Program-made: the position numbers and the translations under genes
Assembly (NCBI GenBank): GCA_016748015.1
Contig: JAAOMT010000028.1
Coordinates: forward strand, 78,001 to 142,000
From: Geosiphon pyriformis uo1
Lineage: Eukaryota; Fungi; Glomeromycota
Reading direction: 5' to 3'
DNA length: 64,000 bases
The notes under the pieces: model-generated
The model's input: the letters and a program-made list of their open reading frames with translations, nothing else
What the model was told of the DNA's origin: nothing
Databases searched by the model: none
Shown: piece after piece, positions 3,669 to 55,229 of the stretch
How positions within the stretch are numbered: position 1 is the first letter of the stretch
Layout of the letters: every line of letters starts with the position of its first letter

Positions 3669-4544
3669 TGTTATGAGATGGTTTTCTTGGTATATTTAAT
3701 TGCTGATATCCTGTCTTAATTGCAATCAGTTTCTTGTGAGTTTCTTAATTCTAATTGTATAATAATGTTGGTATTTAGGCTGCTGGTTTCTTTTTGATGT
3801 CCTGATGTAAGCTATTTTTCAATCTCTGATTGTTGTATGTGTTTATGTACTCTTTCTCAGAGACTAAGCTGAAATCTACCCGTTGTTTGGGGTCTTTTCT
3901 GAAGCTATTCTTGCAATTGTTTGGTGTGTTTCTCTAATCTAGAAACACGGAATATTAATGGCCTTTAATGCTTTTTCTAATTCTTCTTATTCAGTTTTTA
4001 TCAATTAGTAGTTATGTGAATAATTTTGATCAGGGATTATTCTTTTAAGAAATTCAACTGATAAATGATAGTTTTATTCAATAATTAACACAAGTGAGTT
4101 TCTTACTACTTTGGAGGTTGTGATAATTTAGTTTTAAATATTCTTTTTCATTTCTTTTTGATTTAAAGGTTTCTTGGGATATTTAATTTAAAGGTACGAT
4201 TTAAAGTAGAATTTGTTGGATAAATTAGATCTATTGCTTGATAAGTTATGATTTTTATTACTTGATTGACTTTTCTCAATATTAAAGCTACTGTATATAT
4301 ACATGTTTGTAGTTCTATGAGAAAACACATTGTAATACTTTCTTTTTGATATTTCAACCTGGTGTTTGCTACTATTATCAGTTGATGTTGACTGCTATTG
4401 TGAACTGGTGCTTGCCACTATTGCAAGATGGTGTTTTGTTACTATGTTAATCATTACCTTTCTAAGATTATTACTGTGCTATATTATGATTAAATAGTTT
4501 ATATTATCTTTATAATTTTTTTGTTAAATTCTTAAACCATAACA
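3669..4544 (-). repeat. 3' LTR of element A
   Basis: Colinear with 20700-21575; flanked internally by the PPT (ttatccccttctttcaag on +). Confidence 0.93.
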
Positions 4545-4560
4545 TTATCCCCTTCTTTCA
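4545..4560 (-). promoter_or_regulatory. Polypurine tract of element A
   Basis: Minus strand tgaaagaaggggataa immediately before the LTR TGTTA. Confidence 0.85.
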
Positions 4561-5014
4561 AGATTGAGCTTTGTTGAAATTGAAGTTAATTTCTTCATTA
4601 AATTCTAAGTTACTATAGTGGCCCAATACTGTGTTATTAATTTGTTGTTGTAATTCTTGAAATTGCAAGTTGGTAAGTCGTTCAATACTGTTGATTGTTA
4701 TTATGTTTATAGTTGGGTCCAACAATAGTTTGTGACAGTTTTTAAATGCTTTGAAAATTCTGTAAACTGTTTTTCCAAAGTGGCCTGAATGAATATTTGA
4801 GTGCATATTAAATAAGATAGTTTTTTTTTATCTGTGGTTATAACTCTTAATGGATTATCTGGATTTTGTCAATTCTGGTAATAAAGTATGTGATTTGAAT
4901 GAAATAGTGTTTTGCTAATTTTTGGAGCTTAATTAGCTCTTTTACTGGCATTTTTTTATCTATTTGTAATGTTTCCAAGTATTGGCTGAGGTTTTTGTAA
5001 AGGTAGTTGTTTAT
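4558..5014 (-). pseudogene. Integrase N-terminus (to the HH of HHCC) fused by deletion to the ORF3 C-terminus
   Basis: ...YLETLQ...MHSNIHSGHFG (matches B MHTDPFSAHLG) is joined directly to KTVYRIFKAFKNCHKLLLDP...LTNLQFQ (matches B ORF3 RAAFRLYDLFNTCENVLQNP...LTELKFQ). Confidence 0.8.
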
Positions 5015-5043
5015 TGTTGTTGTAGCAGGTGGGTTGGTAATTT

Positions 5044-6370
5044 TTATGTGTGTCTTATTCTTAACAAACAGTTAGCATTAACATTTTTGGTACCTTCTTT
5101 GTATTTGATAATATAATCATATGGTGCTAATGTTTGTAATCATCTGGCATATTTTTCTTTTAGCACTTTTTTGTTATTTAACCAGACCAGACCTTTATGA
5201 TCTGTAGTAATCTCAAAGGATTGGTACCATAAATATGTGTCAAAGTGAACACAACTCCAGACTACTGCTAAGCATTCAAGTTTGTGTGCTGCATAGTTTT
5301 GCTCTGCCATACTGAAACTTTTGCTGACATAAGCAATTACACGTTCTCTTCCATTATCATTTTTTTGTAACAGAATGGTTCCAAGTTTAGTTTCAGAGGC
5401 ATCTGTGACCAAAATGAATTTTTTTTTAAAATTTGGATAGATCATTATTGGTGATTCAATAAACTTTTGTCCAAGGTACTCAAAAGCTTTTTGTTATGCT
5501 TTAGTCCATTCAAATTTCACATTTTTGGATAGTAGATAATTAAGGGGTTTGGCGATGTTTGAAAAGTTTTTTACAAAGTGGCAGTAGTAAGATGCAAGTC
5601 CTAAAAAGCTTCTAACTTTTGAAACATTTTGAGGTACTGGAAAATTTTTCACTTTGTCTATTTTTAATGGATCTGGTTTTATTCCATTTTTTCCAACTAT
5701 GTGTCCTAAAAATGCTAGCTCATTTTTTCAAAAGAAACATTTTTCTAGATTTAGTTTAAGTTCAGTGTGTTTTAATCTCTCAAAAACTTGTTGCAAATGT
5801 TGGAGATAATCCATAAATTTTGACAAGAAAACATTTGTATTGTTCAAGTAAACAACAACAGATTGCCACAGAATTCTGGAGTAAATTACATCCATTAATC
5901 TTTGGAATGTTGTGAGAATGTTTGTCAATCCAAATAGCATTACATTGAACTCATAATTGCTATTTTGTGTTGTGAATGCTGTTTTATGCCTGTCTTTTGG
6001 GTTCATTTCCACTTGTCAGTATCCACTGGTCAAGTCCAGTGTAGAAAACCATTTTGCTCCTTCAAAAATGTCGATAATTTCGTCAATTAATGGTATTGGG
6101 TATGAGTCTTTGGTTGTTTTGCTGTTTAGTTTGCAATAGTTGATGCAAAATCTAATTTTTCTGTTCTTTTTCTTTATTAAAACAACTGGTAAGAACCATG
6201 GGCTCATTGATGGTTGGATTATTTCTTTTTCCAACATGCTTTGGACTTCTTCTCTGATAAAATTATGCTTCATTGGTGGGACACAGTAAGTGCATTGTTT
6301 TTCAAGTCTGGTGTTTCCAGTAGAGATTTGGTGTTGAACCAAGTTGGTTCTTCCAAATTCGCCATTTTAT
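5044..6370 (-). pseudogene. Element A reverse transcriptase + RNase H
   Basis: SPWFLPVVLIKKKN.KIRFCINYCKLN, FSTLDLTSGY, KTAFTT, VVVYLNN (decayed YxDD), FILVTDAS, LECLAVVW, TDHKGL; stop at 5044-5046. Confidence 0.92.
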
Positions 6371-6879
6371 AAAAATATATTAGAGTATTTTAAAATTAAT
6401 GCTTTTAATTGTTACTGTTGGTCAGAATCCATTGTTCCAATGTTTAATTTGGCCAATTTTTCTGGTGTAAATTGATAGAATTCCAATGGTTGTTGCCAAT
6501 TTATTGAAGTGAGTTTACAGTATAAGGCAATTTCTGGAAAATTTAGAATTTTTTGTAGTGTTAATGTGTTTTTTAGCTTCATTCTGAGGTATTCAATGAT
6601 GGTATCTTCCGGAATGTAGATGGATTCTTTTGTGGTATTTGCAATAGAAATTTTTATCCATTGAGCTTTATTAGCTGGAATAAAAAGATTAGTAAGTCCT
6701 ATAAAAAACTTTTGGCAAGTTTCTGGATAGGACTCAAATATTAGGTCTTTTTCTTTAATTGTCTTTTTTATTCTTATTTCTGATTTTCTATATGGTAGAA
6801 GTATAATAGACTGCTCAGTTTTAATTACTTCATCTTTTTTCTTTATTGTTTCAGTGAAATTCACTTCAATTCCTTTTCT

Positions 6880-7300
6880 TGTCGATCCAAAACCAAAAGT
6901 TTCTCTCGTTGTTTGTAACAATTTCTCACGATTTTCCACTGGCACAAATTTCTCAATTTTTACCAATAGTAGAAAAATTGCTTGTGCAATTTTTTTTTTA
7001 GATTCAATGGTATAAGACTTTTCTGAATTGTTCTGTAGCAAAGCCATTAAATTTCCAGTGTATTCAGAGTCAATTACTCTTTCTTGAATGCTTATTCTTT
7101 TTTTTGCGAGGCTTGATCACAACACTATTTGAATCATTGTTTCTGGTGAAATTTCAACCACTATTTTCAGGTCGATTTTGGTAATGCTCCTGGATGGTAA
7201 TATTGTGGATTTGTCTTTCAGATAACATAGATCAAATTTGGCATCAGTTGGATGGGCTCTTTTGGGTATTATTCTTAAGTGCCTATTGTCAAAGTATTAG
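6880..7300 (-). pseudogene. Element A dUTPase domain
   Basis: AHPTDAKFDL, *SSLAKK, VIDSEYTGNLMALLQN, KIAQAIF and RETFGFGST correspond to trimeric dUTPase motifs 1-5. Confidence 0.88.
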
Positions 7301-7449
7301 ATATCAATCATCTGTTCTAGGTTAGTATAAGCTATAAATTTTTCTAACCTGGGACCATCAGATGAGTTTTGTTGATTTATTGATTGATTTTGAGACTGCT
7401 GATTCTCAATTTCCATTTTTCTTTCTAAGTTTCTTTTATCTTAACACTC

Positions 7450-8060
7450 TTCACAGCACTAATTTTGGCATGGGATAAGACAGTTTTTGCAGAGATAAGT
7501 GTTGATTTGGATGAGGTATTGTTCTTACTCTTGTCAAGTGGGACATAGTTGTTAGTAGTAGTTCTGGAATTTGTCTACTGAATCAAATATGTTGTAGCTG
7601 GTGACTTTGTCAGCTATTTTGGCTGACTCTTTCCAATGTTATATTTTTTCAGTGGTTTCTCTTCTTACTTTGGTCTGTGCGGTGTTGTACAACTCGTCCT
7701 TGTTGTGTGGGTAGTGCTGTAGTCTTTTTAACATTCTGTTGAATGCTACTTCAAATGGCATTCCTCCTCTTATCTAGTTACAGATGAGGATTGTATATTG
7801 GCAAGTTGTGTCATATGTTCTTTTTCTGCCTGGTATGTTGTTCTAGTTGTACCCTCTTGGTAATGGTTTTCCACAAGCAAGACATGGTTCCTTATCCCAT
7901 TTTCCATGTCTTTTTGAGTAACCATATTTTTTTTTGTTACAATGGTTACAATAGTAGTGGGTGGGATTTCTTGGGTCTTTGTCTGGTGTGCTGCACACAG
8001 TCATAGATAAGAGTTTCTTCTTGCAAACCAAGCATTCTAGCTTTGGTCTGTGTTGCTGGT
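7450..8060 (-). pseudogene. Element A Cys-rich domain of unknown function (between PR and dUTPase)
   Basis: CLVCKKKL..M.VC, YYCNHC, GKWDKEPCLACG, CQY, HYPH, CKNCLIPC..CCEEC; aligns to B 12250-12850. Confidence 0.75.
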
Positions 8061-8229
8061 GGTTTTTTCATGAACTTACCTGGTTCCATTCGGATCTTTC
8101 TTCACTGGTTCATGTTAATATGGCTGGTAGTTCTGTTCTTTAGTCATCAGTCCAAGAGAGCTGATAGGTTTTAATGACTGATAATGCTGGATTTTACTTA
8201 AATTCAAAGGTAAGTCTTTGGTTGGTGCT

Positions 8230-8605
8230 GGGTTTTTAGAAGTGGCCATAGGTGGCTGGAATTCTGGCCTGGTGGTCATTATAATTGATCAAAAGCTCTT
8301 GGGTGATCCTAGTCTAGGGTGGCATTGGCTTTTGTTAGCCAGTTATTTCCTATTAATGCTTGATATTATGTAACGTCCATTATTAATACTTTTGTATGTA
8401 TTACTATGCTGTTAATTTCAAAAAGAAATGAGTCAATTTCACTATAAGGCAGCTTTGTACTTCTATCGGCTGTTATAATTTGAGATGTTGTAACACAATC
8501 AACTTTGAAACCCAGTTGGTTTACTAATTAAAGCATTACAATGTTTCCAGCAAATCTACTATCCAAAATAAGTTTGATTGAGGTATTGTTTACAGTGATT
8601 TCCAT
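8230..8605 (-). pseudogene. Element A aspartic protease (C-terminal part; its N-terminal part lies right of 18469)
   Basis: Removing element B restores ...CPVMYM|EITVNNTSIKLILDSRFAGNI (decayed D-S-G) ... QALIGNNWL. Confidence 0.85.
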
Positions 8606-9575
8606 TGTTATCAGTAGAATTTTAGCTATTAATTAGCATAAAATTACTCTTATAATTCCTATAATTAATTAGTATATTAATATCATTTCAAATTATCATT
8701 TATTATTTAATCAATTATTACATATTATGATTCAATTAAAATAATCTAATTAGTATAACAGAAAGTAGAATGATCAAATTACACAATACTCTGAACTTTG
8801 TAACATTCTAAAATTCGCCAAAATTTACCGAAATTTATAAGAAATTCGCCGAAATTATGAATAGTTCACTCAAATTAATCAATAGTTTAGCGAAATAACT
8901 TGTAGTTCATCAAAATGTATCTTTAGTTCACCAAAATTTAAGCAAAGAGAAAAAGTGCAAGTTCATAGACTAGTACTACAACAAGTTGTATAAAAGAAGA
9001 GCTTTTTTTTTCAAGAAAATATATCTTACTTTAGATTTATCACTTAGAACCATTCCTACACACACAAAAAAAAATAAATATCAAATAATTTGAAAAACCA
9101 AATTCTTTAATTATTGCACTTGGAAAATCCTCAAAACCCAACTAACGTTTTAAAATTGATTAGCTACCAATTTCAGTAAACTGTTAGTGACTCTAGGCCT
9201 GAATAGAAAACGTTTCCCTTGATAAAATTCTATTTCTTTTACATTTCTTTTATTTTTCTTTCTTTTCTTATTGCAATCATTAAGATAGCCTACAGACAAG
9301 ATTCCTGTAGAAGAGTTGACTTTCACAGCAAAGTAACTACACATTTTTAGTGAGCTTCCAGATGAGCAATTCCTGGGAAAAAGTTGATGTTTACTACAAC
9401 ATAACTACATAAAGTAACTGATAAGGAATTGGCCATTCCACTTATAAGCCCAGCAGTTCAAATTATAAGAAATAATTTGAAGATAAATTCAGTAATTGGA
9501 GGTTTAACTACTTCTAGAAAACATAAATTTGCAGTTACAACATTCAAAAAAAAAGACCAAAAACCTTCAGTAACA
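8606..9575 (+). repeat. 5' LTR of element B
   Basis: Colinear with 17521-18468; U3 has short aaattcgccg-type tandem units. Confidence 0.96.
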
Positions 9576-9577
9576 TT

Positions 9578-9597
9578 TGGTGCTCTTCCATGGAAAT
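9578..9597 (+). promoter_or_regulatory. Primer-binding site of element B
   Basis: TGGTGCTCTTCCATGGAAAT begins 2 nt after the LTR end; TGG is complementary to the tRNA CCA end; tRNA identity not determinable. Confidence 0.75.
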
Positions 9598-9621
9598 AAC
9601 ACAGCAACAACAAACTTCAAA

Positions 9622-12600
9622 GTGACAACCACATCAGACACAACAACTTTAGAGTATTATTAGTCAATTTACACCCATTGCAAACAGAGATTCAACATCC
9701 CAGATGGAATTGAAATTGTTGAAAGAACACTCTACCAATACATTGAAAACCATATCAACAATTATCTTCTTGGAAATTACAACATTTCAGAAGTGAAAAG
9801 CAACCTCTACAATAATCTAGTACACTATTCATGATTGGGAACTGAAGACCTTAACAGTGAAACACTTGCCACCTACTTTCAAGAACTCAATTACAACATT
9901 ATCAAGTATGGTGAAGAAAAATACCCAGTACAGTCTAAATACTCTTTTGACTTTGAATTAGAAACAGAAACAGACAACAAAGGCAAACAAAAAGTGAAAC
10001 AACACTCAAAAACTGCTCCAAACACTCCAATACTACCAAAGACAACTGCCAAACACTTGCAAACACCTGAACAAGGAACCAGTGTTAAATTACCACTTTC
10101 TATCACACCATTTCCAATTTTATTTGCTCGACAACAAACACCAAATTCACTACTTAACCATTTCTCCAGACCAGAAGATTTTCAGTCACCTAGAAATCCT
10201 ACTCAACAGCAGAAACCTATATCAACAAGCACCAATATTATTGAATACTTGCAGAAAAACGAAAGTGATCATTCAGAAAATTTGGAAAGTGAAGAAACTG
10301 AATCAGAACAAAAAGAAGCCACAGAAAACAAAGAGGAAATGACAACTGCTTACATTGCAAAGATTCCAGAATTCATGGGTGAAGATAATGATACCAGTCC
10401 TCAAGAATGGCTTGACAAAATTCAAAAAGCAGGAGATGCAAATAGTTGGATTGCAGTAAAAATGCTTAAAGCAATTCTTTACTTTCTCCAAGGAACAGCA
10501 GAAAAATGGTTTGAAAATTTAGAAGAACCATTTGAAAACTGGCAAGCATTCAAAGATGCTTTTCTACAACAATTCACCAACAACAATACCTCTATCACTC
10601 TCAGAAACCACTCTTGCAATATCAAACAAGAAACATCTGAAACTGTTATGACCTATCTTGGAAGATTTAACAAACTTCTCAGATGAATTTGACAATTGGA
10701 AACCAATAACTACTATTCTGATGCTCAAATTCTGGATCAGTTTATAGCAGGGTTAAAAGACAAACTGATTGAAAAAGTCTGTCTACATGCTTCAGCAGAC
10801 TTAGCAACTGCCATTAGACATGCAAAGAATTATAAAATGGCTATGAAAGAAGCAAACCACACCAAACTTGTTAACTTGGCTATTGGAGAAATCAGTTCAG
10901 CAGCTGAAGAAAAGATAGACCAACTCACAAAGAAGGTTGAAAGCTATTTTACAAACCAACAACAACAGCAGCAACAACCCCAAAAATATCAACCATCACA
11001 GTAACACAACCAAAACAACTTTGGACCACCATCCAACAACCAACCTCAAAATTGTCACTATTGTGGAATTCCAGGACACTGGAAACGAGATTGCAGGAAA
11101 CTACAAAGAGACCAACAAAACAGGAGTAATCAATATTACTCTTTACCACAACAATCTTATTACCAACTCCCACCACCAACTTATTATTCACTGAGACCAC
11201 AAATTCAAAACAGCTATTATCAACCAGCTCTACAACCAATTCAACAACAATATTAGCAATCTTTACCAATTCAGCAATTTCAAACACCACTCACTCAACA
11301 ATATCAAGTACCAGCAAGAAGATTGGTTTAACATAACCAATTCACACTCCAAAATCAATTGCAGAGTAACAACAACAGAATCAATTCAAATAACCAGTTG
11401 GTTCCCTGAAATTCTGGTCAGCAAAGACCCAATCACTATCACACTCAACCCAGTTATCTTACAATACCAGAGGAATTGGATTTTCAACAAACTGCACTTT
11501 CTGAAGGTGAAGTTACAGCACCAAGATCAAACTCTTCCAACCATACTATTTCACCAGCTCAAATTGCCCAAAATGCCAATCTGTCAGATATATTTCCATT
11601 TGAATTTGAAGCAAATGAATCACTATTTCTGCTTAGTAATGCAGCAGTCAATGAACAGAAAGCAATTACTGCTATGTACACAGAAACTATAGTGGAAGGA
11701 AAACTCATTCACTTAATCTTAGATAGTAGATTGGCTGGAAGTATCATTACTTACCAGCTGATGCAACAACTCAAATGAAACATAGACAGACCAGCTCAAA
11801 CAATTATTGTCACAGCTAATGGTATGAAGAAGACTCCAGTAGGAGAAATTGATGATTTCCCCTTTACACTTGATGGAATCATCATTTCAGTTAAAGTTCT
11901 TCTTATGGATGCATCCCAATACCAAGCTCTAGTCGAAAATGATTGGCTTTTTAAGGCCAATGCAAACCTGAACTGGGAAACTCAAGAACTTAAAATCTTA
12001 TACCAAGGACAATATACCATAGTACTTGCAACCTGTGGTACCTTTAACAAATGATCAAAAAAAGCTCCAGTATTTGAATTTGAAGAAGAGAAAGAAATGC
12101 CACTTACTGAAACCTACATGGCTCTTGGATCACCATCCAATTGGGCTGAGGAAACAGAACAAGAGATTTTCAAAGAATCAAGAAGATGGAAGAAAGTTAG
12201 ATATTCTACACTAGAACCACAAAAAGAACCATCATACATTCCACTAAAATGCAAAGATTGCAAAAAGAAGCTTTCATCAATGGAAGCATGTATTTCTCCA
12301 AAAGAGGAATATGAAACTCATATCTGTTACTTTTGCAAAGCATGCCATAGAGAATGATTTGGATCTTCAAAAAGAAATAGAAAATAGAACAACACATCTT
12401 GCCTTATATGTAGAGATATGTTACCAGAAGAATGCAACTGGATTAATGTTGCAATGAGAAGAGAAGTATGTGATCAAATCTGTCAATATGCTCTATTAAT
12501 TTCGAAAAAAGTCAGAAGAGAAACACTATTTGATGCAGCATACAACAGTGCTCTTAATAAACTTTACCACTACCCTCATAATGCTAAAATGATTTTTGAC

Positions 12601-15246
12601 CTAGCAATGGCATTGATCAATGGAGCCACTCAAAAAGATGTCCGTCAAATGAAAGAAGCTGAATACATTGAGTATACCATGGAATTAGCTAGATTTGATT
12701 ATGAAGATGAAGCAGAAACATATTACCAAATTGCAAGCCACACATATCCGACCAAAGAAGCTCAAATTCAATGATTAGAGCAAATGAACATTCAATTGTG
12801 TGAAGAATACATCATGCCTTGTAATGACCAATGGTGTTTAGAATGCTATGCTCTTAGCATTCCTCTGCCAAATGAAAATGATGAAAATGAAATCGAATTT
12901 GGAGTATCTGAACAAGTAAAAAAACTACCAATCACCCCCATCTATCTCCTTGAAAAACAACCACCTCTACAACTTAAATATTTTAACAACTATGGCCAAG
13001 GAATCAGACCAGAAAAAGCACACGAAATTGATGCCAGATATGATCTAAAATACCTAGGAAAAGATACTTTGGTTCTTCAACCAAAGTCTTTGACAAAAAT
13101 CAATCTCAAAATTGCTCTTAAAATTCCACCTGGAACAATGATTCAAATTGCCTCCAGATTATTATTGGCAAGCAAAAGAATCAATATTAGAGGAGGAGTT
13201 ATAGATGCAGGATACACTGGAGACATTACCATCATATTACAGAATGAGACAGACAAACCATTTAAAATTGAACATGCTGAAAAAATTGCTTAAGCAATTT
13301 ACTTACCCTTAATCAACATTTCAGGTTTACAATTAGTAAACAACAGAGAACAATTGGAAAAAAGTGAAAAAGGAACTCAAGGTTTTGGTTCAACTGGACG
13401 ATTTACAGTTCCAGTAAACATAGCTCTTAATACACAAAATGAATCTCACCAGATTCTTCAACTTCCTCAGCCAATTACCATTTCACCTTTTGGAGAACAT
13501 CACGAAATTTACACTTGCTCAAAACCCACCACTACACAACAAATCTTTGAATCCAATGAACAAATCTGTTTGAAGCATGAAATCTCAATTCCAAACATTT
13601 ATATTCCCAAAGGAATAAAAAAATTTTGAGTCACATTCTACAACCCCAATAATTACTCTATTGTCTTATTAAACAAACTGGAGATTGGAATCATACACAG
13701 CAATATTTTTCAAGATGAAAACCCTCAAATTGTTTCTAATTTCATCGAAATTGTAAGGCACACTCTATTCCCAAATCCAAATATCATTCCCACTACTGAA
13801 AACTACCACTTTTTGAAAGAAAAACTCTCTCGAATTAACATGGGTCCCTTAGAATCTCAACAACAAAGACAATTGAAACAATTGATAGCTGAATTTGCAG
13901 ATATATTTGCAAAAGACAACAATGACCTGGGAAAAACGGATATGGTTCAACATCAGATCCATACAGGAGATGCTTCACCAAAACATTAGCAAGCTTACAG
14001 AGTGCCACTTGCTAGCCACCAATTCATCAGAGAAGAAGTCCAGAGAATGCTCAATAACGGATTGATTCAACCATTAAGAAGTCTTTGGGCTTCACCAGTA
14101 GTCCTTGTCAAAAAGAAAAATGGAAAAATCAGATTTTGTGTTGACTATTGCCAAGTAAACAGTATGACAATTGGAGATGCCTACTCTTTTCCAAGAATTG
14201 ATAACATGCTAGATGCTCTAGAAAAAGCCAAGTTCTTCTCAATTTTAGACTTGGAAAGTAGATACTAACAAGTCGAAATGGACCCAAAAGACTGACCCAA
14301 AACAGCATTTACCATCCAGGGAGAAAACTATGAGTTCAATATTATGTCTTTTGGACTTTGCAATGCACCAGCAACATTTCAGCGACTCATGGATGTTGTA
14401 TATGAAGGGTTCTTATGGCAATCAGTAGTTGTCTATCTTGATAACACTGATGTATACTCATCAAGCTTTAAGACTCATTTTATCCACCTGTGAGAAGTTT
14501 TTCAACAATTATGGAAAGCAGAATTGAAGTTAAACATTGAAAAATATCACTTTGGAAAAACAAGCTTAATTTTTTTTGAACACATTGTTAGCAAAGATGA
14601 AGTCAAACCAAATCCAGGAACAATCAGTGCTGTCAAAAACTTTCAAACCCCCAAAAATACCACAGAACTAAGAAGATTTGTAGGATTAGCCTCTTACTAT
14701 TGAAAATTCATCAAAAGATTCTCAGAAATTGCCAAACCACTCAATTATCTTACCAATAAAAATGTGCCATACAAATAAACTGAAGAACAACAAAAAGCAT
14801 TTGAAACTCTCAAAACAAAACTGACAACAGCCCCAGTTCTTGCTTACCCAGACTTCAACAAACGATTTCAATTAGCCACTAATGCTTCACACATAGCATT
14901 TGGTGCCATCTTATCACAAGTAAATGAAAATGGGCAAAAACAAGTTATTGCTTATGCTAATAGAACACTCAAACCAACAGAACTAAAATATGGCTCAACT
15001 GAATTAGAAGCTGCCACAGTTATTTGAGCTCTTAAACATTTTCAACAATATCTAAAGAATGAAAAAGAATTTGACATAATAACAGACAACATTGGCTTCA
15101 AATGGCTCAATAAAAAGAAAACTGAACAAAGTGCCAAACAGTCTCAATGGAATGACTTCCTAGCAGACTACAGATATATTGTACACCACAAACCAGGAAA
15201 ACTATATATCAATGTTAATAGCCTCTCAAAAATGAGACAAGATTAA
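9622..15246 (+). pseudogene. Element B ORF1 polyprotein: Gag(CA, CCHC)-protease-Cys-rich domain-dUTPase-RT-RNase H
   Basis: All ORF-track fragments from 9835 to 14002 share one frame, broken only by single-base stops. Motifs: IPEFMGE..SPQEWL, CHYCGIPGHWKRDC (11053-11094), LILDSRLAG, dUTPase GGVIDAGYTG/GFGSTG, RFCVDY, VVVYLDN, QLATNAS, ELEAATV. Confidence 0.93.
12960..13400 (+). pseudogene. Element B dUTPase domain
   Basis: KAHEIDARYDL, IASRLLLAS (decayed RSS), GGVIDAGYTGDITIILQN, EKIA*AI and KGTQGFGSTG correspond to dUTPase motifs 1-5. Confidence 0.92.
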
Positions 15247-15304
15247 TACCAACAACAAATTCCACCACAACTTACCAACCTACCAACAAAATAACCAAAC
15301 AAGA

Positions 15305-16686
15305 ATGGATCCCAGAAATTACAATCTTAAAAATTATTTGGAGACCCTTACTATGTTAGAAAACTGGTCTCCAAGTAAAAAACATCGTTTACAACATCAA
15401 TTAAAACAATATTTTATACACCAAAACAAAATTTATTATAAAAATCACAGAAATCCAAACTAACTATTCAGATTAGTACAAAAGAATGAAAAAGAAACAA
15501 TTTTATACAACATGCACACAGATCCGTTTTCAGCACACTTGGGAAGAGATGGAACAATTCAAAGAACTCTTAAATATTATTTTTGGCCTCACATGCAAAA
15601 AAACATTCGAGAATATATAGAATCTTGTGATAGTTGTCAAAGAAGAGAAGAAACTCACTCCACAGAACCTTTAAATCCAATCAAAGTTGGACAATCTTTT
15701 GACAGAGTTGGAATTGATTTAGTCGGACCATTACCTATCACAACCCAAGAAAATTGCTATATTGTAGTAGTAGTAGATTATCTTACCAAATGGCCTGAAG
15801 CTAGAGCCATTCAAACAGCAAATGCAAAATCAGTAGCAAATTTCATTTATGAAGACATTATTTGTAGACATAGATACCCAATTAAACTTTTATCTGATCA
15901 AGGAACACATTTTGTAAACAACTTGATACAAAAAATTTGTGAATAGTTCAATGTCAAAAGACCTCTATTATCATCTTATCACCCTCAAACAAATGGACTT
16001 GTAGAACGTTTCAACAGAACATTGTGAGAATTTCTAGCCAAAGTCTTAACAGACTTTAAGCAGGAATGAGATATCTTTATTTCATTAGTGTTACTAGCAT
16101 ACAAAACGCTAAAACAAAATACTACAAAACACATAACATTTGATCTTACTTATGGAAGGACAGCAATATTACCAATTAATTTCACAGTGGAAACATACTC
16201 AGTGCAACCAATCAATGAAAAAAACTTTCAAAAAACACTCCAAAAAAGGGTCTACACTCTTCTTAGTACACTGGAAGGAAAAAGAAAAATAGCAACAACT
16301 CATATTAAACATTTCCAAGCTCAACAAAAAGAAAGACATGACAACAAATTACCACCTATTACTAACAAATTTAAAGTTGGAAATAAAGTTCTCTTACACA
16401 GAACTAAGACTGAAAAACAATGGAATAAGAAATTTGAAAACAAATGAGATGAACCATTTTATATTCACGAAATTCTAGGCAATAGATTATACAAGTTAAG
16501 ACTTGATGATAAAATACTAGCAAAAGTTGCACATGGAGACAGATTGAAACACTATCATTCCAAAAACAATCCTGAACCATTAATTCCACAAATTGGTACA
16601 CATTCCTCTTTAATTAATCCTGAAGATATTCCCTGAAATTTAGAACCAATAATTATAATAGAACAACAACCAAACTTGAACACTTA
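15305..16686 (+). pseudogene. Element B integrase encoded as a separate ORF (HHCC, DDE, GPF/Y; no chromodomain)
   Basis: Own ATG at 15305 (MDPRNYNLKNYLETL) in a different frame from RH. Motifs: MHTDPFSAH...CDSC, GIDLVGP, LSDQGTHF, PQTNGLVERFN, K*DEPFYI (decayed WDGPF). Confidence 0.9.
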
Positions 16687-16832
16687 AATTTTACAATAAT
16701 TCTTTAATAAAAACACAAAAACAAAAATAGTAAATAATTACAAAAAACATCCAAACCCAAAAACAAATAAAAACTCCATATCCAAAAAATAATTTTCTTT
16801 ATTCTTTCTTTTTATAATTAGTCAATTTTATC

Positions 16833-17509
16833 ATGATTATTCCCTGAAATATTCAACAAATATCCCAAAAGTTAATGTTAGCCTTGAAAACACTTCCTGA
16901 CTTATCTATAACAATTAATAGAAGTCAAATTAATTACATTCAGAAAAAAATCACAGCCCTAGTAGCAAATCATTCACAGAACTATCACCTCTATAGAAAA
17001 AAAACAAGAAGCCACTTTGAAAATAGGTTACTAAGACTTTTAAAGCAAGCACTAGAAGAAAATCTTTTAATTGCCCCTATGGACATTCCATCAAATGCTA
17101 CAATGCAACAAAAACTTCTACTACTTCTCAATAAACAGAACAATGAACACACTCCTATTTATAAATACTTTCATATTGGAAAGACACTTTATGAACGAAA
17201 ACTGGAACTTGAAGCAACAAATTTCACTTCTGAAGCTATACAAAAACAAATCCACAATGAATTCAAAACAGCAGCTGGACCAACAAACACTTGCTACAAA
17301 CTTAGAGCAGCTTTTAGACTCTATGATTTGTTTAATACTTGTGAAAATGTTCTACAAAATCCAATACTGCAACCAATGAAAGTCCAATACATTAGCAAAC
17401 TCACAGAACTGAAATTTCAACAATTTTCAGACCAGATTACTTCAATTATTTTGGATTACTATCTCAATATTACAGATAGTGCTTGGATTTTGATGAAACT
17501 CAGTCTTGA
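16833..17509 (+). pseudogene. Element B ORF3: ~225-aa helical accessory protein of unknown function
   Basis: In-frame ATG at 16833, one internal TGA, then open for more than 200 codons. The likely true end is LDFDETQS* at 17509 (1-nt frameshift near the end). Homologous ends in A, in C1 and at 57090-57710. Confidence 0.75.
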
Positions 17510-17520
17510 GGAGGAGATTA
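17508..17520 (+). promoter_or_regulatory. Polypurine tract of element B
   Basis: gaggaggagatta immediately before the 3' LTR. Confidence 0.85.
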
Positions 17521-18468
17521 TGTTACCAATAGAATTTTAGCTATTAATTAGCATGAAATTACCCTTATAATTCCTATAATTAATTAGTACATTAATATCA
17601 TTTCAAATTATCATTTATTATTTAATCAATTATTACATATCATGATTCAATTAAAATAATCTAATTAGTATAACAGAAAGTAGGATGATCAAATTACACA
17701 ATACTCTGAACTTTGTAACATTCTAAAATTCGCCGAAATTTACAGAAATTCGCCGAAATTATGAATAGTTCATCCAAATTAATTAATAGTTCAGCAAAAT
17801 AACTTGTAGTTCATCAAAATGTATCTTTAGTTCACCAAAATTTGAGCAAAGAGAAAAAGTGCAAGTTTATAGACTAGTACTACAACAAGTTGTATAAAAG
17901 AAGAGCTTTTTTTTTCAAGAAAATGTATCTTACTTTAGATTTATCACTTAAAACCATTCCTACATACACAAAAAAAAATAAATATCAAATAATTTGAAAA
18001 ACCAAATTCTTTAATTATTGCACTTAGAAAATCCTTAAAACCCAACTAACATTTTGAAATTAATTAGCTACCAATTTCAGTAAACTGTTAGTGATTCTAG
18101 GCCTGGATAGAAAACGTTTCCTTTAATAAAATCCTATTTCTTTTATATTTCTTTTATTTTTCTTTCTTTTCTTATTACAATCATTAGGGTAGTCTACAGA
18201 CAAGATTCCTGTAGAAGAGTTGACTTTCACAACAAAGTAACTACACATTTTTAGTGAGCTTCCAAACAAGCAATTCCTGAAAAAGAGTTGACATTTACTA
18301 CAACATAACTACATAAAATAACTGGCAAGGAATTGGCCATTCCACTTATAAATCCAGCAGTTCAAATTATAGGAGATAATTTGAAAATAAATTCAGTTAT
18401 TGGAGGTTCAACTACTTCTAGAAAACGTTATAACATTCAAGAAAAGAGACCAAAAACCTCCAGTAACA
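17521..18468 (+). repeat. 3' LTR of element B
   Basis: Colinear with the 5' LTR; ends cagtaaca followed by TSD ccat. Confidence 0.96.
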
Positions 18469-20617
18469 CCATATACATAACAGGACATTTTTTGTCCAAT
18501 ATTGCTCTATTGAACATAGCCTCATTTTTCTCTAATTCAAAAGGAAAAATAGCTGCGAGACTGCTATCTTCAGTGGCAACTGCTGGTGGTATTTTTTGGC
18601 TCAATTTGTTGGAGGAATTTTCAGTTCTGTTTATGTTTCTACTATTATTGTTTTTGATGATCAGATTTTCTGGTATATTAAGATAAGTTTGTTGATAATT
18701 TTGGTAGTTTAGATTGGTTTGCTAACTGGTTCTAATGCAGTTTGGATTCCTCTGAACCAATGTGTTCTGGTTCCACATGGGCTGATTTCAGAGCTCAGGA
18801 TGCCAATTTGGGTTGGCTATTATGGACTGTTGTTAGTAAGTTTCTTGATTTTAATACATGGTGGGATATTAGCATGGTATTGGTGTGTACTGGTTTCTGG
18901 GCATTTGGGGTGGCATGTAATAATTATTTTCACATGCTTTCTGCATTATTTGTGTTCAATATTGACTAATCAAATGTCTTATGCATTTGCAAAAATGGCA
19001 GGCACATATTTCTGTTCTGAATTTCTGGTGTGATGAGCAATTATTTTGACTGTTGCTGACTTCCTGGCTGCATCTTTGAAGTGGTTGGTAGGTATTTCTT
19101 TTTGAATCCGGAATGAGGTAACTTTCTATTTTCTTAGAAAGTTCCTCCCCTAATTGAGTTACTCTTTTCTCTAATGTTTTTGTCTTATTTTTTTCCATTA
19201 CTATGTTAATCATTTGACTATGATTAGCTTTTTTCTCAGCCGATTCAAAAGCTCTGACAAATGTAATGACTTCTGGTAAGAAATTAAAGTGGGCAGAGTG
19301 TACTCTTCCTAAAATACTGCTTTTTAATTCTCTAATAAACTGATTTAAAACCTGAGGATCAGTGTAGTATCCTTGTTTAATTGCTTCAATCTGATAGTGA
19401 ATTCGATTGAATCAAGTAAGATATTGGGTGACAGTTTTACCAGTATCTTGCTTGATAGTATTGAATTTGTTTTGTAGTTGGATTATGGTGTTTGGGTCGC
19501 TAAAATACTCCAGGAGTGCATTTTTAAATTTGGCAAAGCTTATGGGTTTTGTTTCCAGACTTTGATACCACAAGTTGGCTGTGCCTTTCAGGAAGAAAAG
19601 TAATGTTTGAATTGCTCTTTGGTCACTCCAGTTATTTGCCTGGATGGCTTTTTGTACTTCTCTGAGCCATGTGTATATGTCCATTTTTTTTTCCTCTTCT
19701 GAGAAATCTGTTAGTCTTGTGATGTATGATATGGCCATTTTGTTGCCGTTTTCTGCTGGTGGGCTTATTGGTCTAAGAAAAAGTGGGATGATATTTCCTT
19801 GAGCATTTCTAAAGGTGGCTTCCTTTATATTCAGTTTTTTTTCTTGATCATAAGTTTTTTGGTTTCTGGACTGGCTGCTTGTTCCAGTGACCAGTCTTGT
19901 GATTGTTTTTTTGCTGGTCTTTTTTTTGGATTCCAATTCAGACTCCTCTTCATGGTTTTCAAACTCTGTTCCGAATTTTGGCTGAAAAAGAGGGTTTTGA
20001 AATAGTGATGAATATTCTTCTGTAATTGGTATGTCTCCCTAGTTACGTTGTTTAATTTTATCAATATAACTAAGAGTTTTTGGTGTTTGTGGAGTTGATG
20101 TTGATGATGATACAGCTCCTAATGGAATTTGTATCTTATTTTTTGGTAAAAAATGGTATGATTTATTTTCTGGTGAATAAATACATTGTTTTTTTATTGA
20201 TTGAGTAACAGTGTTCTTTGGTGTTTGAGCAAGTGTTCCTAGTTTTTGCTGGTTACTTTCCTGATTAGTTTCTAATTTTTTTTTGGTTTTGTTGGCACAT
20301 TCCCTAGTGTTTCCTGTGAATATTAGAAAATTTTTGTTGGCGTATTGCTCAATTTCTCGATAGATTTTGACAATAGTTGCAGCTATTACTGCTACTTCCT
20401 TTGTAATGTATTGTGATAATTCTCTATACAATCCAAGTTTTGCATTATGTAGTTCTTCTTTCTTTCTTATATGATAATTTATTCTGGCATTGATATAATA
20501 AATGAGAGCAGATTCTGCTGGACAACACCCTTCTGGTAATCCAAGATTACTTTGATTTTGTGTGTAAATAGCATGGCAGAATTCAAGAACAGTAAGATTA
20601 GGAGTTTTTGTTGCCAC
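18469..20617 (-). pseudogene. Element A gag (N-terminal extension, CA, CCHC) and protease N-terminus
   Basis: ITRLTDFSEE..DIYTWLREVQKAIQANNW..FFLKGTANLWY; CHFCKCIRHLISQY (decayed CCHC); ORF begins at GTG 20617. Confidence 0.88.
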
Positions 20618-20699
20618 TTTTGTTTTTTCCTTTTTAGCAATGAATTATTGCTAATTATTATTTCTTTTTTGATTTTCTTTCCTTGTAGGGTTTACTAAA

Positions 20700-21575
20700 T
20701 GTTACAGAATGGTTTTCTTGGTATATTTAATTGCTAATATCTTGTCTTAATTGCAATCAGTCTCTTGTGAGTTCCTTAATTCTATTTGTGTGATAATATC
20801 ACTGTTATACTGAAGGCTTTTTCTTTAATATCGTGATGTAAGTTATTTCTCAATTCCTGATTGTTGTATGTGTTTATGTATTCTTTCTCAAAGGCTGAAC
20901 TGAAATCTACCTGCTGTTTGGGGTCTTCTTTAAGGCTATCCTTGCAATTGCCTAGTGTGTTTTTCTAATCTAAAAACACGGAATATTAATGGCCTTTAGC
21001 ACTTTTTCTAATTCTCCCTATTCAGTTTTTATCAATTAGTAGTTATGTAAATAATCTTGATCAGGGATTATTCTTCCAAGAAATTCAACTGATGAATAAT
21101 AGTTTCATTCAATAATTAACACAAGTGAGTTTCTTACTATTTTAAGAGTTGTGATAATTCAGTTTTAAATATTCTTTTTTATTTCTTTTTGATTTAAAGG
21201 TTTCTTGAGATATTTAATTTAAAGACACAATTTAAAGTGGAGTTTGTTAGATAAATTGGATCTATTGCTTGATAAGTTATGATTTTTATTATTTGATTGA
21301 CTTTTCTTAATATTAAAGCTACTGTATATATACATATTTGTAGTTCTACAAGAAAACACATTGTAATACTTTTTTTTTGATATTTCAATCTGGTGTTTGC
21401 TGCTATCACCAGTTGGTGTTAGCTGCTATTGTGAACTGGTGCTTGCCACTATCACAAAATGATGTTTTGCTATTATGTTAATCATTATCTTTCTAAGATT
21501 ATTACTGTGCTATATTATGATTGAATAGTTTATATTATTTTTATAATTCTTTTGCTAAATTCTTAAATCATAACA
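20700..21575 (-). repeat. 5' LTR of element A
   Basis: Colinear with 3669-4544; followed on the minus strand by a PBS-like tt-tagtaaaccctacaagg (TGG decayed to TAG). Confidence 0.93.
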
Positions 21576-22701: not shown

Positions 22702-23591
22702 TGTTACTTGAAAAAAAAAAGCTAATCAAAGAAAGAAAGAAAAACATAAAAAAAAAAACATAATAAAACATGAAGAGATACAGAATAATGTGCAATAATA
22801 TTGAATAACATATTATAACATAGAATAATATATTATAATATAGAATAATACAGAATAATGTGTAATAATGTCAGATAATGTGTTATAATATAGAATAATT
22901 AGTTATAACATAAAAAAATAAAACAATAGCTAACAAAAACAGACAATCCAAAGCAATCCTGTAAAACTAAAAATATGTATATATAGCAATAGCATTAAAA
23001 GCAAAAAGAAAGAATTCTTAAACAAAAATTCATTAGTTATCATTCTTAATTAGAAACATATTATTCCAAAATATCAATAAATATACTTATTCAGCATCTT
23101 AAATCTAATTACTTACTATCAGCTCTAAATGTTGATAGTAATTGATACTTAAACCACATAGAAACAATAGCTTTTGATCATGGCTATTAACGAGATACTA
23201 ACTTGTATTGTCTTGGCTTAATTTTTTTTATTTCATTTTTTATTTTTTTGTATCTTATTAGTGGTTTACTAAATTTTTAAGGATTAAGTACTAAGTTATT
23301 AACATCAAGAATTGCCTGGTAAAAGACCCCTGCAAGTGAGTAAAATGCATAAGAATTACAGATTACTTATCAAAAGATTGCCAACCACCAAGCTAAGAAA
23401 AAAATTGATGAAATTGTGATTCTGGGAAGCTACAGATAAAATAACATGAGAATCTCTGTCTATTATACAAAAAACTCAATCAAAATCTTCAGAATGCAAA
23501 AACCTTCAGATTACTACCATCCCATATCAATTGAGCACCAAGTTATGAGTTTGTTATTTACTCCAACTATCTGAAATAATCATCTATAATA
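22702..23591 (+). mobile_element. Solo LTR family C, copy C3
   Basis: TGTTAC start; decayed end tataata; flanks ctgc/ttgt (a TSD with two C>T changes); same R/U5 blocks as C1. Confidence 0.75.
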
Positions 23592-25610: not shown

Positions 25611-26639
25611 AAAATTAAGGAAACAAAAAGTTTTTTTATTTTTATTTAAAATATATAAAAACCAGTTTTAATATAAGTTTTATAAAATAATTAAATTTTA
25701 TAAAAACACATAAAACACAATTAGTTAAAAATTAAAACTAATTTAATTAAAACATAAAATTTTTTTAATTAATTATCAAAAATATGTGGTGTTTAAAAAC
25801 TTAATTTTAAAAAAAAAATAAAAAAAACATAATTAAAATATTTAATTAATTAAAACACTATTATTAAAATTATATTTTTAATAACATGATATTTTTTATT
25901 ACTTAATTAATATTATGATAAAGATAAGATTAAGTATTAAAACTAATAACTTATTTAATAAAATAAAACATAATATAAAATATTAATAATATGTATTTAA
26001 GAATTAAAAATTAATAAAAAATTTGAAGTGTTAATAATAAGTATATAATATATTTAAAATATTAATAAAAAGTATTTAAAGCTTTAAAATATATATATAT
26101 ATATATATATAATAACTGATTACTTATTATAAAACTATTAAAAAAAATTGGCTTAATATAAAATTAATATTTTTTTAATATACAAAAAAACTGTATATAT
26201 AGTTAAATTATATAAAATCTATATATTATATTAAAACTATTTTAAATATATCAATTATTTATATATATTTAATTTAGTTATAAGTTTACTTAATATATTA
26301 TTTTTTTAGAAGCTAATAATTTAAATAACTAAATTTAAAAATATAATTATATATTATTAACACTAATTATAATTATAATTAATATAATCTGACATAAATC
26401 AATTAATTATATTTTTGAATAATAATTGCAAATTTAAAATATTAAACTGCATAAATAAAGACATATAAAATTTTTAAAACATAATAAAATTTGTTGTTAT
26501 TAAATTATATATATTAATTCTTAATTTTTATTGGTATTTCTTAGTTTGCTAAGATTTTTTTATATTTAATTTAGTTAAATAATTAGATTATGCTATATTT
26601 TTTTGTTGTTATTAAGTTAATTGCTGATTTTTTATTTGA

Positions 26640-27420
26640 ATTTGAATTTATTAATTAAATACAATAATATAAGTCTTTTTTACATGATTTTAATAATAAT
26701 TTTTATAATATATATTATAATTTTTATATTAAAAATTATAAAAATTATGCTAATAATAATAAACAAAAATTCATTAATAATAATAAATAATAATTAATGT
26801 TTAATTTTTTAATATAATAACTGGTTTATTTTAGTGTTTTTTATTCTTTTGATAAGTAATTCAATAAATTAATTTTATGTTTATTTTTGTGTTTTTTATT
26901 AAATAATTTTTAATATTATAATTTTAATATTTTTTCTAAAATTAATTAATAAATAATAAAACAATAAAATAAAATAAAATAAATAAAAATTAGTATTTTG
27001 TTAATAACTATAATTAAAAGTTATTGTTTTAGTGTTGTTAATAATATTGTATTTATACTATTAATATTATTTAAAAATAAATAAATTTTAATATAATAAA
27101 TATTAATTTATATAAATAGAATAATAAATAATTTTAATAATAATATTTATTAAAAACATGTTTATTTTAAGTGTTAAATAATTAACTATTGAAGCTATTA
27201 GATAAGAACCAAAACTAAATTTAATTGTTTTTTTTGTTTTTACTGTTATTATTATATATATTTTAATTTTTATAATACAAAATTCTTAAAACTTTTAATA
27301 ATTCTTATATTTTTTTTAAGTTAGTATTAATATTTCTAATATTTTTAATATTATATAATTTAATAATTTCTTTATTATTAGTTAATTTATATAATTTTAT
27401 TTTTTAAATTATTTTTTAAG
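26640..27420 (-). repeat. Highly AT-decayed family-C LTR remnant
   Basis: Reverse complement of 26991-27034 (cactaaaacaataacttttaattatagttattaacaaaatacta) matches the conserved C block; ends approximate. Confidence 0.5.
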
Positions 27421-28559
27421 TAATATTGTTAATATAAATATTAAAATATCAAATTCATAAAAATTTCTTAGACTAATATTAAAATTTTAAATATCTAATT
27501 TATATTGAATTATAATATTATATACAAAAATAAAAATACTTATAATAGTTTTTAAATTATTTACAAAACATTAATAACTTTTAAAAACAATTTTTTTAAG
27601 ATAAAGTTTTTAGTAATAACTATATATAAATAGTTACTGGATCTTATTTTATATAATAATCAAATAATTATAAAGTTTGTAATCAATAAACCAAATAAAT
27701 TATATTATTTAACAATAGTATTAATAATAACTATTTTTTTAGTAACAAAATTTGATTTATACAAAAATATATGATTCAAATTTTTATTAAAATATAATAT
27801 ACTATATAATCTTTTTTTTATATAATTAGTAATTTTTTGTGTAATATTTTTATAAAATAAGAATAGAAATTAATCTAATTAACTTAATATATATATATAT
27901 ATATATTTAGATATTATACTATAATTGTATATAATAAGTTTAAATTTTAAGTTAAAAACTTATTTGTATATTTTACAGCACAATTGGCTTTTTAAACAGC
28001 AAATTTAACAGAATTAAACAATTTTACATAAAATATTAAGCATTTTTAAAAACAAAATAATCATAAATAACCAAATATTATTTATTAATATTATAAAATA
28101 AGAAGTTGTAAAAGTGTTAATAATTATATTTATGTAATTATTACTTATATTGCCAAAATAATTTTTAACTTTATATTATCAAATTATTAAATTTTGTTTT
28201 TGATAATATTATTAATATAATAATATTTTATTAGTATTTATTATAAAAATCAAAACCAGAAGTATTTAAATTTAATGTATATATATTTAATATAATCTAA
28301 TTATTTAAAAACTATATATTTTATTTAAATACAAATTAAAACAAAAATTATTGCTTATAAATTACCAAAATTAATAACAAAAAACCATAAATATTTAAAT
28401 TTACTTTAAAATTAACATTTAAGAAATAAAATAAAAACATTAACAACAATATTAAAAAAATCTATGTCTTAATTAAACTATTAGTATAAATATTAATAAT
28501 ATTTAAATTATTATTATTATTTATAAAATAAAATAAAAAATAAGTAACAGTTAAAAAAA

Positions 28560-29365
28560 TAACATAAATTAACTAATAACATAATATAAATTATCAAAAT
28601 ATACAATATTAGAAATTTTAAAAATACCAAAAAAATTTTTAAAAATATTAGCAGAAATATTAAAAATTCCAATAATAATTTAAAAAATATGTAAAATTAT
28701 TAAAAATTCCAAGAATTTATATTATAAAGATTTATATATATAGTATTAAAAACAGAAAAAATAATCAAGTTTAATTTAATTTTTATTAAGTAACTTTAAT
28801 AATTAAAAATTTAACAATTAAAATAAATATTTTAATAAAATTATTATTTAAATTATTACTATTTAAATTTATTTATTTTTAATTAATACCAATAGTATTA
28901 ATACAATTTTACTAATAATATTAAAATAATAGCTCTTAATTATAATTATTAATAAAATACTAATTTTTATTTTTTCTATTTTTTATTTCTTTTATTGTGT
29001 TTTATTTATTTTACTAAATAAATAAATAAAAGTAAAATTACAATATAAAAATTAGTTGGTAAAAAATATAATAATAAATGTAAAATTGATTTATTAAATT
29101 GCTTATTAAAAAAATAAAAAACATTAAAATAAACTAATTATGCTAAAAAATTAAATATTAAATATTATTAGCTATTATTATTAAATTTTTGTTTATTATA
29201 TAAAGAATTTTATTAACTAAAACTTTTAAATACTTAAACTTTTAATTAATTAAAATCTTCAAATATTAAAATTTTTAAATTTAATTAATAAATTTAATAA
29301 ATTTAAAGCACTAACTTATAAGTTAATATATTAAATTCATAATTTATAATAGCATCTATTAATTA
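28560..29365 (+). repeat. Highly AT-decayed family-C LTR remnant
   Basis: tatatatatagtattaaaa TATA block, aaataatagctcttaattataattattaataaaatactaat and tttgtttattatataaag match C1/C2; ends approximate. Confidence 0.55.
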
Positions 29366-30467
29366 TTTTTAAATTATTGTATTTAAATAAATAAAAAAGC
29401 AAATTTAAAGAAAAAACAAAATACACTAAGCAACAAGACTTTTATTATTAATAAACATAATAATAATATTAAACTAAACAAAAACTAACTTTTTTAAATC
29501 TAATTTTTTTAATAATAAAAGTTTTTTTAAATAAAACATGAATCATAATAATTTAAAAGTTGGTTGATAAAAGTATTTTAATAATCTAACCAAATTAAAG
29601 TAAAATAAATAGGCCAAAATATTTAACATTAAAATTTTTTTCTTTAACAAAAAGTGTAAAATAAGCCATTTATCAAAAACAAATTAGTTTATTTTATTAT
29701 ACAAACCTAAATTTATTTAAAGCTTTTAATTAATATATATAAATTACATTTACTTAAAGTTTTTAAGCAAAATTTTATGGTTTTTATTTTTAATAAAATA
29801 AAATCAATAATTATTTTACAACTTTACTTAAAAGTTAAAAATTTAAATTAATTTATTTAATATGGTCTAAATATTGTTATTTGTTTGTTACTATTAATTT
29901 TTCCAAAATATTTAAGCTTTAAAAATTTTAAAAATGGTTAATTTTTATATTTATTGTAATCAAAATTTTATTATTTGTTTCTAAAAGTAATATTTTTTAT
30001 TTTTAACAAATATTTAATTAACTTAAAATCTTAAACTTCAAAATATTTAATAAGTGATTTTTAAATGATTGGTTTTATTATAAATCATATTTGAAATATT
30101 CAATATTTAAGAGTTTCGAAAACATATTAATGAAAGGATGCAAATTCTATGGATTTTCATCAAAATTTGAATCAAAAGAATTTGAACATAAATTATTGGT
30201 TTGAAAAACCCGTAATAGAGATGCAAAACTGATAAAGGATGGCAAAAACAAAACGTGCGCCAGATGAACCTATGTGTTATTTCAATTTTCAAACTGTTTG
30301 TGGGTTTAGGAGCGTCAAGATACTTGGTTCGAAATGAATCAAAATGTAGGATACAAATTTCTTGATATAAATACTAAGTGTTTGCTTGAGGTAAAAATTG
30401 AAAGAAGTTCCGACTCAAAAATAAAATCACAAAGAGTCCATGATCTCTTAATCTATAACAAGATATC

Positions 30468-31266: not shown

Positions 31267-31425
31267 AATTTTGACAAAGGGTTTCTCAAAAAAAAAAAAC
31301 TATGAACGATGGGACAGATAATCTACAGTTTATTACACATCACGGGTTTCATTCTTAGGACAAAAAATAACACGTAGCAACTATCTTGATTCAACTAACA
31401 GGATAATACTTTCCAAAAATTTTTC

Positions 31426-55200: not shown

Positions 55201-55229
55201 TATTATGAATAAATTTGTTGGATTAGTAT

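Follow-up and report, generated by a model that had tools for sequence, protein, structure and literature searches.

Analysis of a 64,000-nt stretch of the Geosiphon pyriformis uo1 genome (contig JAAOMT010000028.1, positions 78,001 to 142,000; hereafter the window) revealed a Ty3/gypsy long terminal repeat (LTR) retrotransposon at 8606-18468, element A, which belongs to a group of elements that encode their integrase (IN) as a separate gene. The copy itself is dead and decayed. In canonical Ty3/gypsy elements IN forms the C-terminus of Pol, and the best-known additional 3' open reading frame (ORF) is env. In element A, the polyprotein frame stops after RNase H (RH), and IN and a third gene, ORF3, are separate genes with their own start codons. 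We concluded that the split between RH and IN is a true feature of the element and not a product of decay. The hallmark of the group is a stand-alone IN, usually accompanied by ORF3, and its distribution, comprising mycorrhizal fungi and soil DNA, is far wider than the Geosiphon genome. The group is a variant of Ty3/gypsy, real and lineage-wide, with an unusual expression problem.

The junction between RH and IN was surveyed in 481 contigs from one DNA run with a variant cut-off of 4%. As the window itself may have come from this run, the survey describes the state of the family and provides no independent support. Two other runs, X2 and X3, yielded almost nothing. Neither the RH stop nor the IN ATG displayed a variant of at least 4%. 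A 1-nt deletion at 15257 in the spacer occurred in 12 contigs, corresponding to about one third of the depth, and alters the RH-IN frame offset; in the copies carrying it, IN lies in frame behind a single TAA.

A homologue search with IN, restricted to proteins of 251-802 aa, yielded 1110 proteins, the best 120 of which were examined. These comprised records of Rhizophagus irregularis and R. clarus along with many metagenome proteins. Intact members of the group are present in R. irregularis (P0176, P0189, P0252, P0284). In 93 of the 120, the start methionine was located exactly 11 residues before a conserved anchor, and the residue following it was D in 62, E in 20 and N in 11 of the 93. Another 23 of the 120 were shorter calls with an internal start.

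A metagenome scan identified 524 related stretches, from which the best 80 loci (designated by L numbers), ranked by a stand-alone-IN profile, were kept. Among these 80, RH was fused to IN in none of the 50 loci containing RH. In the 48 loci with an assigned IN ATG, RH-IN offsets of 0, +1 and +2 occurred 12, 20 and 16 times, respectively, and since the offsets are mixed among loci, a shared frameshift or readthrough is excluded. The gap between the two genes ranged from -20 to +365 nt, with one outlier of 943 nt that is due to a premature stop in a long tail. Weighing on the other side, the length window of the protein search and the ranking by stand-alone IN under-sample fused relatives; the searches demonstrate the existence of a large split group and do not imply that fused relatives are universally lacking. 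In an IN tree of 72 rows from a quick search, from which loci failing length or stop filters were left out, element A paired with L002 and the Rhizophagus proteins were interspersed among the metagenome loci, which is why many of these loci probably derive from mycorrhizal fungi. Three scans of viral contigs yielded no relatives. A literature search, which had partial access to its sources and a reach that ended short of GyDB, Repbase and the Geosiphon genome paper, yielded no account of a stand-alone IN in Ty3/gypsy.

Other parts of the metagenome loci varied. Gag and pol were separated by a -1 offset in four of 12 loci (L005, L030, L053, L072) and formed one ORF in the other eight (L023, L025, L038, L042, L051, L063, L066, L069). 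Five loci (L023, L038, L048, L063, L065) encode an RNase H extended at its C-terminus by 250-370 aa; the extension contains a Cys/His-rich motif and was not matched in Pfam. A conserved His/Cys motif in the Gag N-terminus of L001, L021, L063 and L072 suggests a zinc site; that of L001 had no Pfam match.

Apart from the position of IN, element A displays the traits of Metaviridae (Ty3/gypsy): LTRs with TG..CA ends, a target duplication, a primer-binding site (PBS), a polypurine tract (PPT), and the domain order protease (PR), reverse transcriptase (RT), RH, IN. The canonical trait of IN as the Pol C-terminus is absent, representing the variant feature. Among solved structures, the top match of RT-RH by similarity was Ty3 (4ol8/7q5b, E ~1e-76), and Ty3 chains outranked 8r0s as well as foamy-type and retroviral chains. 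The IN consists of an H2C2 zinc domain, an rve core and a weak SH3-like C-terminus, and its homologues terminate soon past the SH3-like region. No chromodomain was detected by Pfam in the IN of element A or among the precomputed domains of the best 120 homologues. The two LTRs share 92% identity, with transitions accounting for 55 of 56 differences, and the pattern of LTR end and TGGTG motif recurs in relatives. The final codons of ORF3 cross the purine tract and end inside the 3' LTR. The observed/expected CpG ratio of this copy was 0.12, as opposed to 0.99 in a host-gene region.

A search with the window ORF3 gave 205 proteins; the 120 listed comprised 119 hypothetical proteins of G. pyriformis and the window's own. 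ORF3s of the Geosiphon type comprise 221-245 aa, and distant metagenome relatives matched at 27-31%. The type found in a second element of the window, element B (see below), also occurs in the proteins P0148 and P0149. P0144 and P0150 were discarded as chance hits, and the chimeric gene model P0135 was retained in the ORF3 alignment A1. Downstream of IN, a match to the ORF3 profile was present in 32 of the 44 loci whose flank measured 500 nt or more, although 28 of these 32 had been used to build the profile, and four of the remaining 16 loci matched. With a profile built from 27 non-Geosiphon loci, the three ORF3 sites of the window were the best matches (i-E 5e-4, 9e-4 and 0.078), and a profile-profile comparison gave 95.9% with an E-value of 5.5e-9. 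The sequence-only reading, an earlier appraisal of the window by its letters, had proposed a coherent lineage of Metaviridae in which IN is separate and ORF3 is conserved. The absence of a continuous RH-IN frame in the 50 loci and the conservation of ORF3 bear this out.

A structural model of a 147-aa ORF3 member reached a pLDDT of 95.8 and contained eight helices; an earlier model was of low quality (pLDDT 57), and nothing could be learned from fold searches with it. With the better model, Foldseek gave no match from PDB or BFVD at E 0.001, and the best VIA match had a Z of 5.5 with an rmsd of 3.5 over 73 aligned residues. This lack of a clear match to the predicted fold does not prove that the fold is new. 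Searches against Pfam, PDB sequences and PHROG gave scattered weak or single-member hits and no recurring family, and the Atlas gave weak hits or none. No transmembrane segment was predicted in 31 ORF3s, with maximum 19-residue hydropathy values of 0.34-1.43. An Env or membrane glycoprotein was ruled out by this lack of a transmembrane segment, the all-helical soluble model and the absence of a shared Pfam family. We infer that ORF3 is most likely a soluble accessory factor binding nucleic acid or protein, such as a regulator or an IN- or RNA-binding cofactor. The lineage had also been called retrovirus-like; this should not be taken to imply infectivity, the ORF3 having no transmembrane segment. 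At the usual place of ORF3 after IN, L019 carries a NUDIX hydrolase gene (1945-2886; Pfam E 1.4e-10), another nucleotide-pool enzyme that the group has captured, and L072 carries a gene for a small helix-turn-helix protein (6546-6941).

With regard to expression, the layout of the sequences rather than RNA led us to propose that IN and ORF3 are made by termination-reinitiation from the full-length RNA, a reading to which we assign a probability of roughly 0.5. Ribosomes would restart at the first AUG past, or overlapping, the upstream stop, and free IN would have to reach the particle or the cDNA untethered to Gag-Pol. ORF3 may follow a different expression route. At 20 of the 48 RH-IN junctions the IN ATG overlaps the RH stop or lies within 2 nt of it, including two TAATG and five ATGA arrangements, and at 24 of the 48 the distance is at most 30 nt. 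In the accessible part of PMC10275272, UAAUG/AUGA overlaps are named as a signature of reinitiation, fungal viruses included. The 26 longer RH-IN spacers were depleted of ATG, containing five as compared to 15.2 in dinucleotide shuffles, none of 300 of which was as low. Seven of 28 IN-ORF3 junctions overlap or are at most 5 nt apart; ATG occurred eight times before ORF3 where 15.1 were expected, in a test that is partly circular.

Several observations weigh against reinitiation. The RH-IN gap exceeds 30 nt in 24 of the 48 loci, including the 58 nt of element A, which is beyond the coupling range of the type that relies on a binding site for ribosomes upstream of the point of termination (TURBS), as given in the accessible part of PMC10275272. 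The 18S-complementary word UGGGA was not enriched (2 of 43, compared to 4-8 in controls), and the RH tail displayed no conservation at synonymous sites. GTA is as scarce as ATG in the RH-IN spacers, and the depletion of ATG is equally compatible with a capped subgenomic RNA. In AT-rich DNA, out-of-frame tails meet early stops, and some overlaps may therefore be passive. Finally, the IN-ORF3 gap is larger than 1 kb in four loci, and TATA-like words precede 12 of 28 ORF3 starts.

The latter observations lead to the possibility, which we consider less likely, that IN and ORF3 each have a subgenomic mRNA of their own, started from promoters inside the RH tail or the spacers. Foamy viruses express accessory genes in this manner. 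The wide range of gaps, reaching more than 1 kb before ORF3, would be explained, and the ATG-poor spacers could act as 5' leaders. In 12 of 28 loci the word TATAWAR was present between positions -65 and -13 relative to ORF3, as compared to 2.1 in shuffles, but most of these words lie within IN codons or the IN stop, and spacers that are exclusively non-coding gave 3 of 15 versus 1.4. Upstream of IN, such words occurred in 6 of 53 loci versus 2.8, with a shuffle maximum of eight, and in element A neither the IN nor the ORF3 start is preceded by one. Internal promoters are more plausible for ORF3 than for IN, and they leave the frequent stop-start overlaps unexplained.

In a subclade, an RNA motif is located immediately before IN. 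The motif spans 48 nt and comprises 14 pairs, eight of them with two-sided changes, and 96.7% of cells were paired in 13 sequences; the structure was read from these same, related sequences, and counts from shuffles are not probabilities. It is present in 22 of the 80 metagenome loci (e.g., L021:292-339 and L038:4461-4508) and is missing from the window. In 21 loci with an assigned IN ATG it lies directly upstream, ending 1-11 nt before the ATG in 19 of them. Almost all loci bearing it fall in a single well-supported clade, to which two R. irregularis proteins also belong, and no match was found in Rfam. Due to its position directly before the IN AUG, the motif suggests a role in the control of IN translation. 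Internal ribosome entry at this covarying structure, placed against the IN AUG, is nevertheless unlikely: 58 of the 80 loci lack the motif, as does the window, the pair counts are biased towards a structure derived from the same sequences, and the fold is small and weak (approximately -5 to -12 kcal/mol). The motif may instead act as a tether for reinitiation or as a control site to which a protein binds. In element A itself, a hairpin across the RH stop (15212-15253; z -2.6), one of two stretches tested, is a weak lead from a single sequence.

Even less probable are spliced mRNAs for IN and ORF3 of the kind known for env-type ORF3s. The ORF3s of LTR elements are typically translated from spliced messages, according to the accessible part of PMC5408684, and in element A the ORF3 ATG is closely preceded by a pyrimidine tract and an AG. 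Upstream of IN, however, branch site plus YAG combinations were not enriched (10 of 43 versus 7-16 in controls), nor were polypyrimidine tracts plus AG (2 of 43 versus 0-5), and an AG close to the ATG is missing from several spacers. That IN is the Pol C-terminus after all, reached by frameshift or readthrough, or that the split is decay, could draw on the heavy mutation of the window copy with its low CpG ratio and on the 15257-deletion copies, but is largely refuted by the three frame offsets, the lack of fused loci, the conserved methionine and the stop fixed in the family, leaving it a negligible chance.

A more far-reaching version of reinitiation, which we regard as rather improbable, would be a Glomeromycota-centred clade with an operon-like three-gene mRNA translated by serial reinitiation. 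In the subclade the RNA structure would place ribosomes on the IN AUG, and a new-fold ORF3 would serve as a trans-acting factor for restart or for recruitment of free IN, representing a functional analogue of the caulimoviral TAV protein.

Between PR and RT, elements A and B encode a Cys-rich region followed by a dUTPase. The positions of the cysteines are conserved between the two elements, and the region had no match in Pfam or PDB. Both dUTPases match PF00692 over the full length and are of the trimeric type; both copies are decayed. Just past the dUTPase, a beta-rich stretch noted by eye in A and B (window 13410-13750) resembles a degenerate dUTPase-like linker. In lentiviruses, dUTPase has an established role in keeping uracil out of cDNA, and by analogy the enzyme would do the same here. 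The sequence-only reading took the full layout including this region (its ZnX-dUTPase) as the hallmark of the lineage. This had to be abandoned, as neither the Cys-rich region nor the dUTPase was found in any of the 17 metagenome loci spanning PR to RT. The cassette instead is a local, captured addition of the Geosiphon families, the dUTPase part of which has precedent: in the accessible parts of PMC2864245, PMC5408684 and PMC6431247, elements from Postia, rotifers and planarians are described as having a dUTPase between PR and RT, and elements of Phanerochaete and Tuber as having dUTPase domains.

Element A is inserted in element B, just before the B protease (Table 1). A and B had been described as sharing the same layout. 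This holds for A and, in B, for Gag-PR-Cys-dUTPase-RT-RH; the IN and ORF3 of B are largely deleted. An internal deletion has removed most of IN and the N-terminus of ORF3, leaving the start of IN fused to the ORF3 C-terminus. Where the IN of B begins with ATA, relatives have ATG, and the frame from RH to IN is +1 in A versus -1 in B. A third, A-like fragment encodes an ORF3 with 61% amino-acid identity to that of element A. A rough synonymous versus non-synonymous comparison of the two ORF3 copies in the window (32/76) mainly reflects decay and was set aside. The fragment is arranged as ORF3-LTR-1.9 kb-LTR on the minus strand with strong AT decay, and its 10-bp tandem repeat recurs at 22754-22926. 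For a further LTR family, C1, a shared 3' end had been claimed; the signature of purine tract and LTR start is indeed common to it, while the ORF3 profile found no protein match in C1 (1-159).

Table 1. Coordinates of the retroelement features in the window.
Feature	Position	Strand
Element A, target-site duplication CCAT (4 bp)	left 8602-8605, right 18469-18472	+
Element A, 5' LTR, TG...CA ends	8606-9575	+
Element A, putative primer-binding site, TGGTG motif, 2 bases past LTR	9578-9587	+
Element A, ORF1, Gag-Pol without IN, single frame, 21 internal stops, 0 frameshifts	9670-15246	+
ORF1, Gag (Retrotrans_gag)	~10477-10758	+
ORF1, CCHC knuckle (zf-CCHC)	~11050-11100	+
ORF1, aspartyl protease, weak match (E 0.004)	~11692-11910	+
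ORF1, Cys-rich/helical region	~12244-12880	+
ORF1, dUTPase	~13009-13398	+
ORF1, RT	~14107-14559	+
ORF1, RNase H	~14851-15171	+
ORF1, terminal stop TAA	15244-15246	+
Element A, RH-IN spacer, 58 nt, C/A-rich, without ATG	15247-15304	+
Element A, ORF2, stand-alone IN, own ATG at 15305, +1 frame relative to ORF1, 6 internal stops	15305-16687	+
Element A, IN-ORF3 spacer, 145 nt, AT-rich, without ATG	16688-16832	+
Element A, ORF3, 235 codons, one internal stop at 16845	16833-17540	+
Element A, polypurine tract, within ORF3	17508-17517	+
Element A, 3' LTR	17521-18468	+
Element B, interrupted by A; LTRs 20709-21575 and 3678-4544 (89%)	3678-21575	-
Element B, Gag	~20640-18469	-
Element B, PR-Cys-dUTPase-RT-RH, ends in stop	8605-5044	-
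Element B, IN start position, ATA, 29 nt past stop, -1 frame	5014	-
Element B, ORF3 C-terminal remnant	~4803-4560	-
Third, A-like fragment, more decayed than A; ORF3 57090-57701, then two A-like LTRs	53449-57709	-
C1, shared purine-tract/LTR-start signature	1-159	+

In textbook LTR retroelements, IN enters the particle within Pol, by which its amount and packaging are fixed. A widespread group that cuts the link between IN and Pol must set the level and packaging of IN otherwise, and provides a direct test case both for the entry of IN into particles and for fungal reinitiation downstream of very long ORFs. LTR sequence accounts for 41.2% of the G. pyriformis genome, according to the accessible part of PMC11952901, and stand-alone-IN elements probably represent a large part of some mycorrhizal genomes. 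As annotation places both the stand-alone IN and ORF3 among host genes (under the names 'putative integrase core domain protein' and 'hypothetical protein'), counts of orphan genes are inflated. ORF3 adds a protein with a high-confidence model and no clear structural counterpart, and the subclade an RNA motif absent from Rfam. Elsewhere in the window, a host-gene island with normal CpG (30000-46000) gave arrestin-domain, rabenosyn/FYVE and anoctamin hits, and the ORFs at 44506-45825 and 61767-63584 had no Pfam match. Relic repeats with 8-17% GC occupy 26000-30000, 46000-49000 and 57000-60000, their extreme AT-richness pointing to long-acting C-to-T decay at CpG and beyond.

With Ty3 of Saccharomyces, element A shares the domain order, LTRs, PBS and PPT. 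In the accessible part of PMC5911963, however, Ty3 has IN within Pol and a +1 gag-pol frameshift, whereas element A encodes Gag to RH in one frame, followed by a separate IN and ORF3. Like A, PosPlaTy3-5 (Postia), the Phanerochaete elements, Tmt1 (Tuber), the bdelloid Juno, Vesta and TelKA, and Burro are dUTPase-bearing Ty3/gypsy elements; the accessible descriptions state a stand-alone IN for none of them. In the same partial sources, the fungal members are discussed alongside chromodomain-containing elements, while the IN of A has no chromodomain. Rotifer elements also carry non-Env ORF3s, which are described there as env-like, GDSL, DEDDy, transmembrane or coiled-coil proteins; the ORF3 of the group matches none of these in Pfam. 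Caulimoviruses are not known to have LTRs or an integrase, and the comparison of ORF3 with TAV gave no link in sequence or fold. Caulimoviridae nonetheless represent a related RT lineage with closely spaced genes and reinitiation by means of the virus-encoded TAV, as covered in the accessible part of PMC10275272. UAAUG/AUGA overlaps after a long ORF, as observed here, occur in CHV1 hypovirus, HvV190S, caliciviruses, influenza B and the non-LTR element SART1, according to the accessible parts of PMC10275272 and PMC2699510. The junctions described here differ from these reinitiation systems in that half of them exceed 30 nt, that no TURBS motif was found, and that the coupled gene is the IN of an LTR element.

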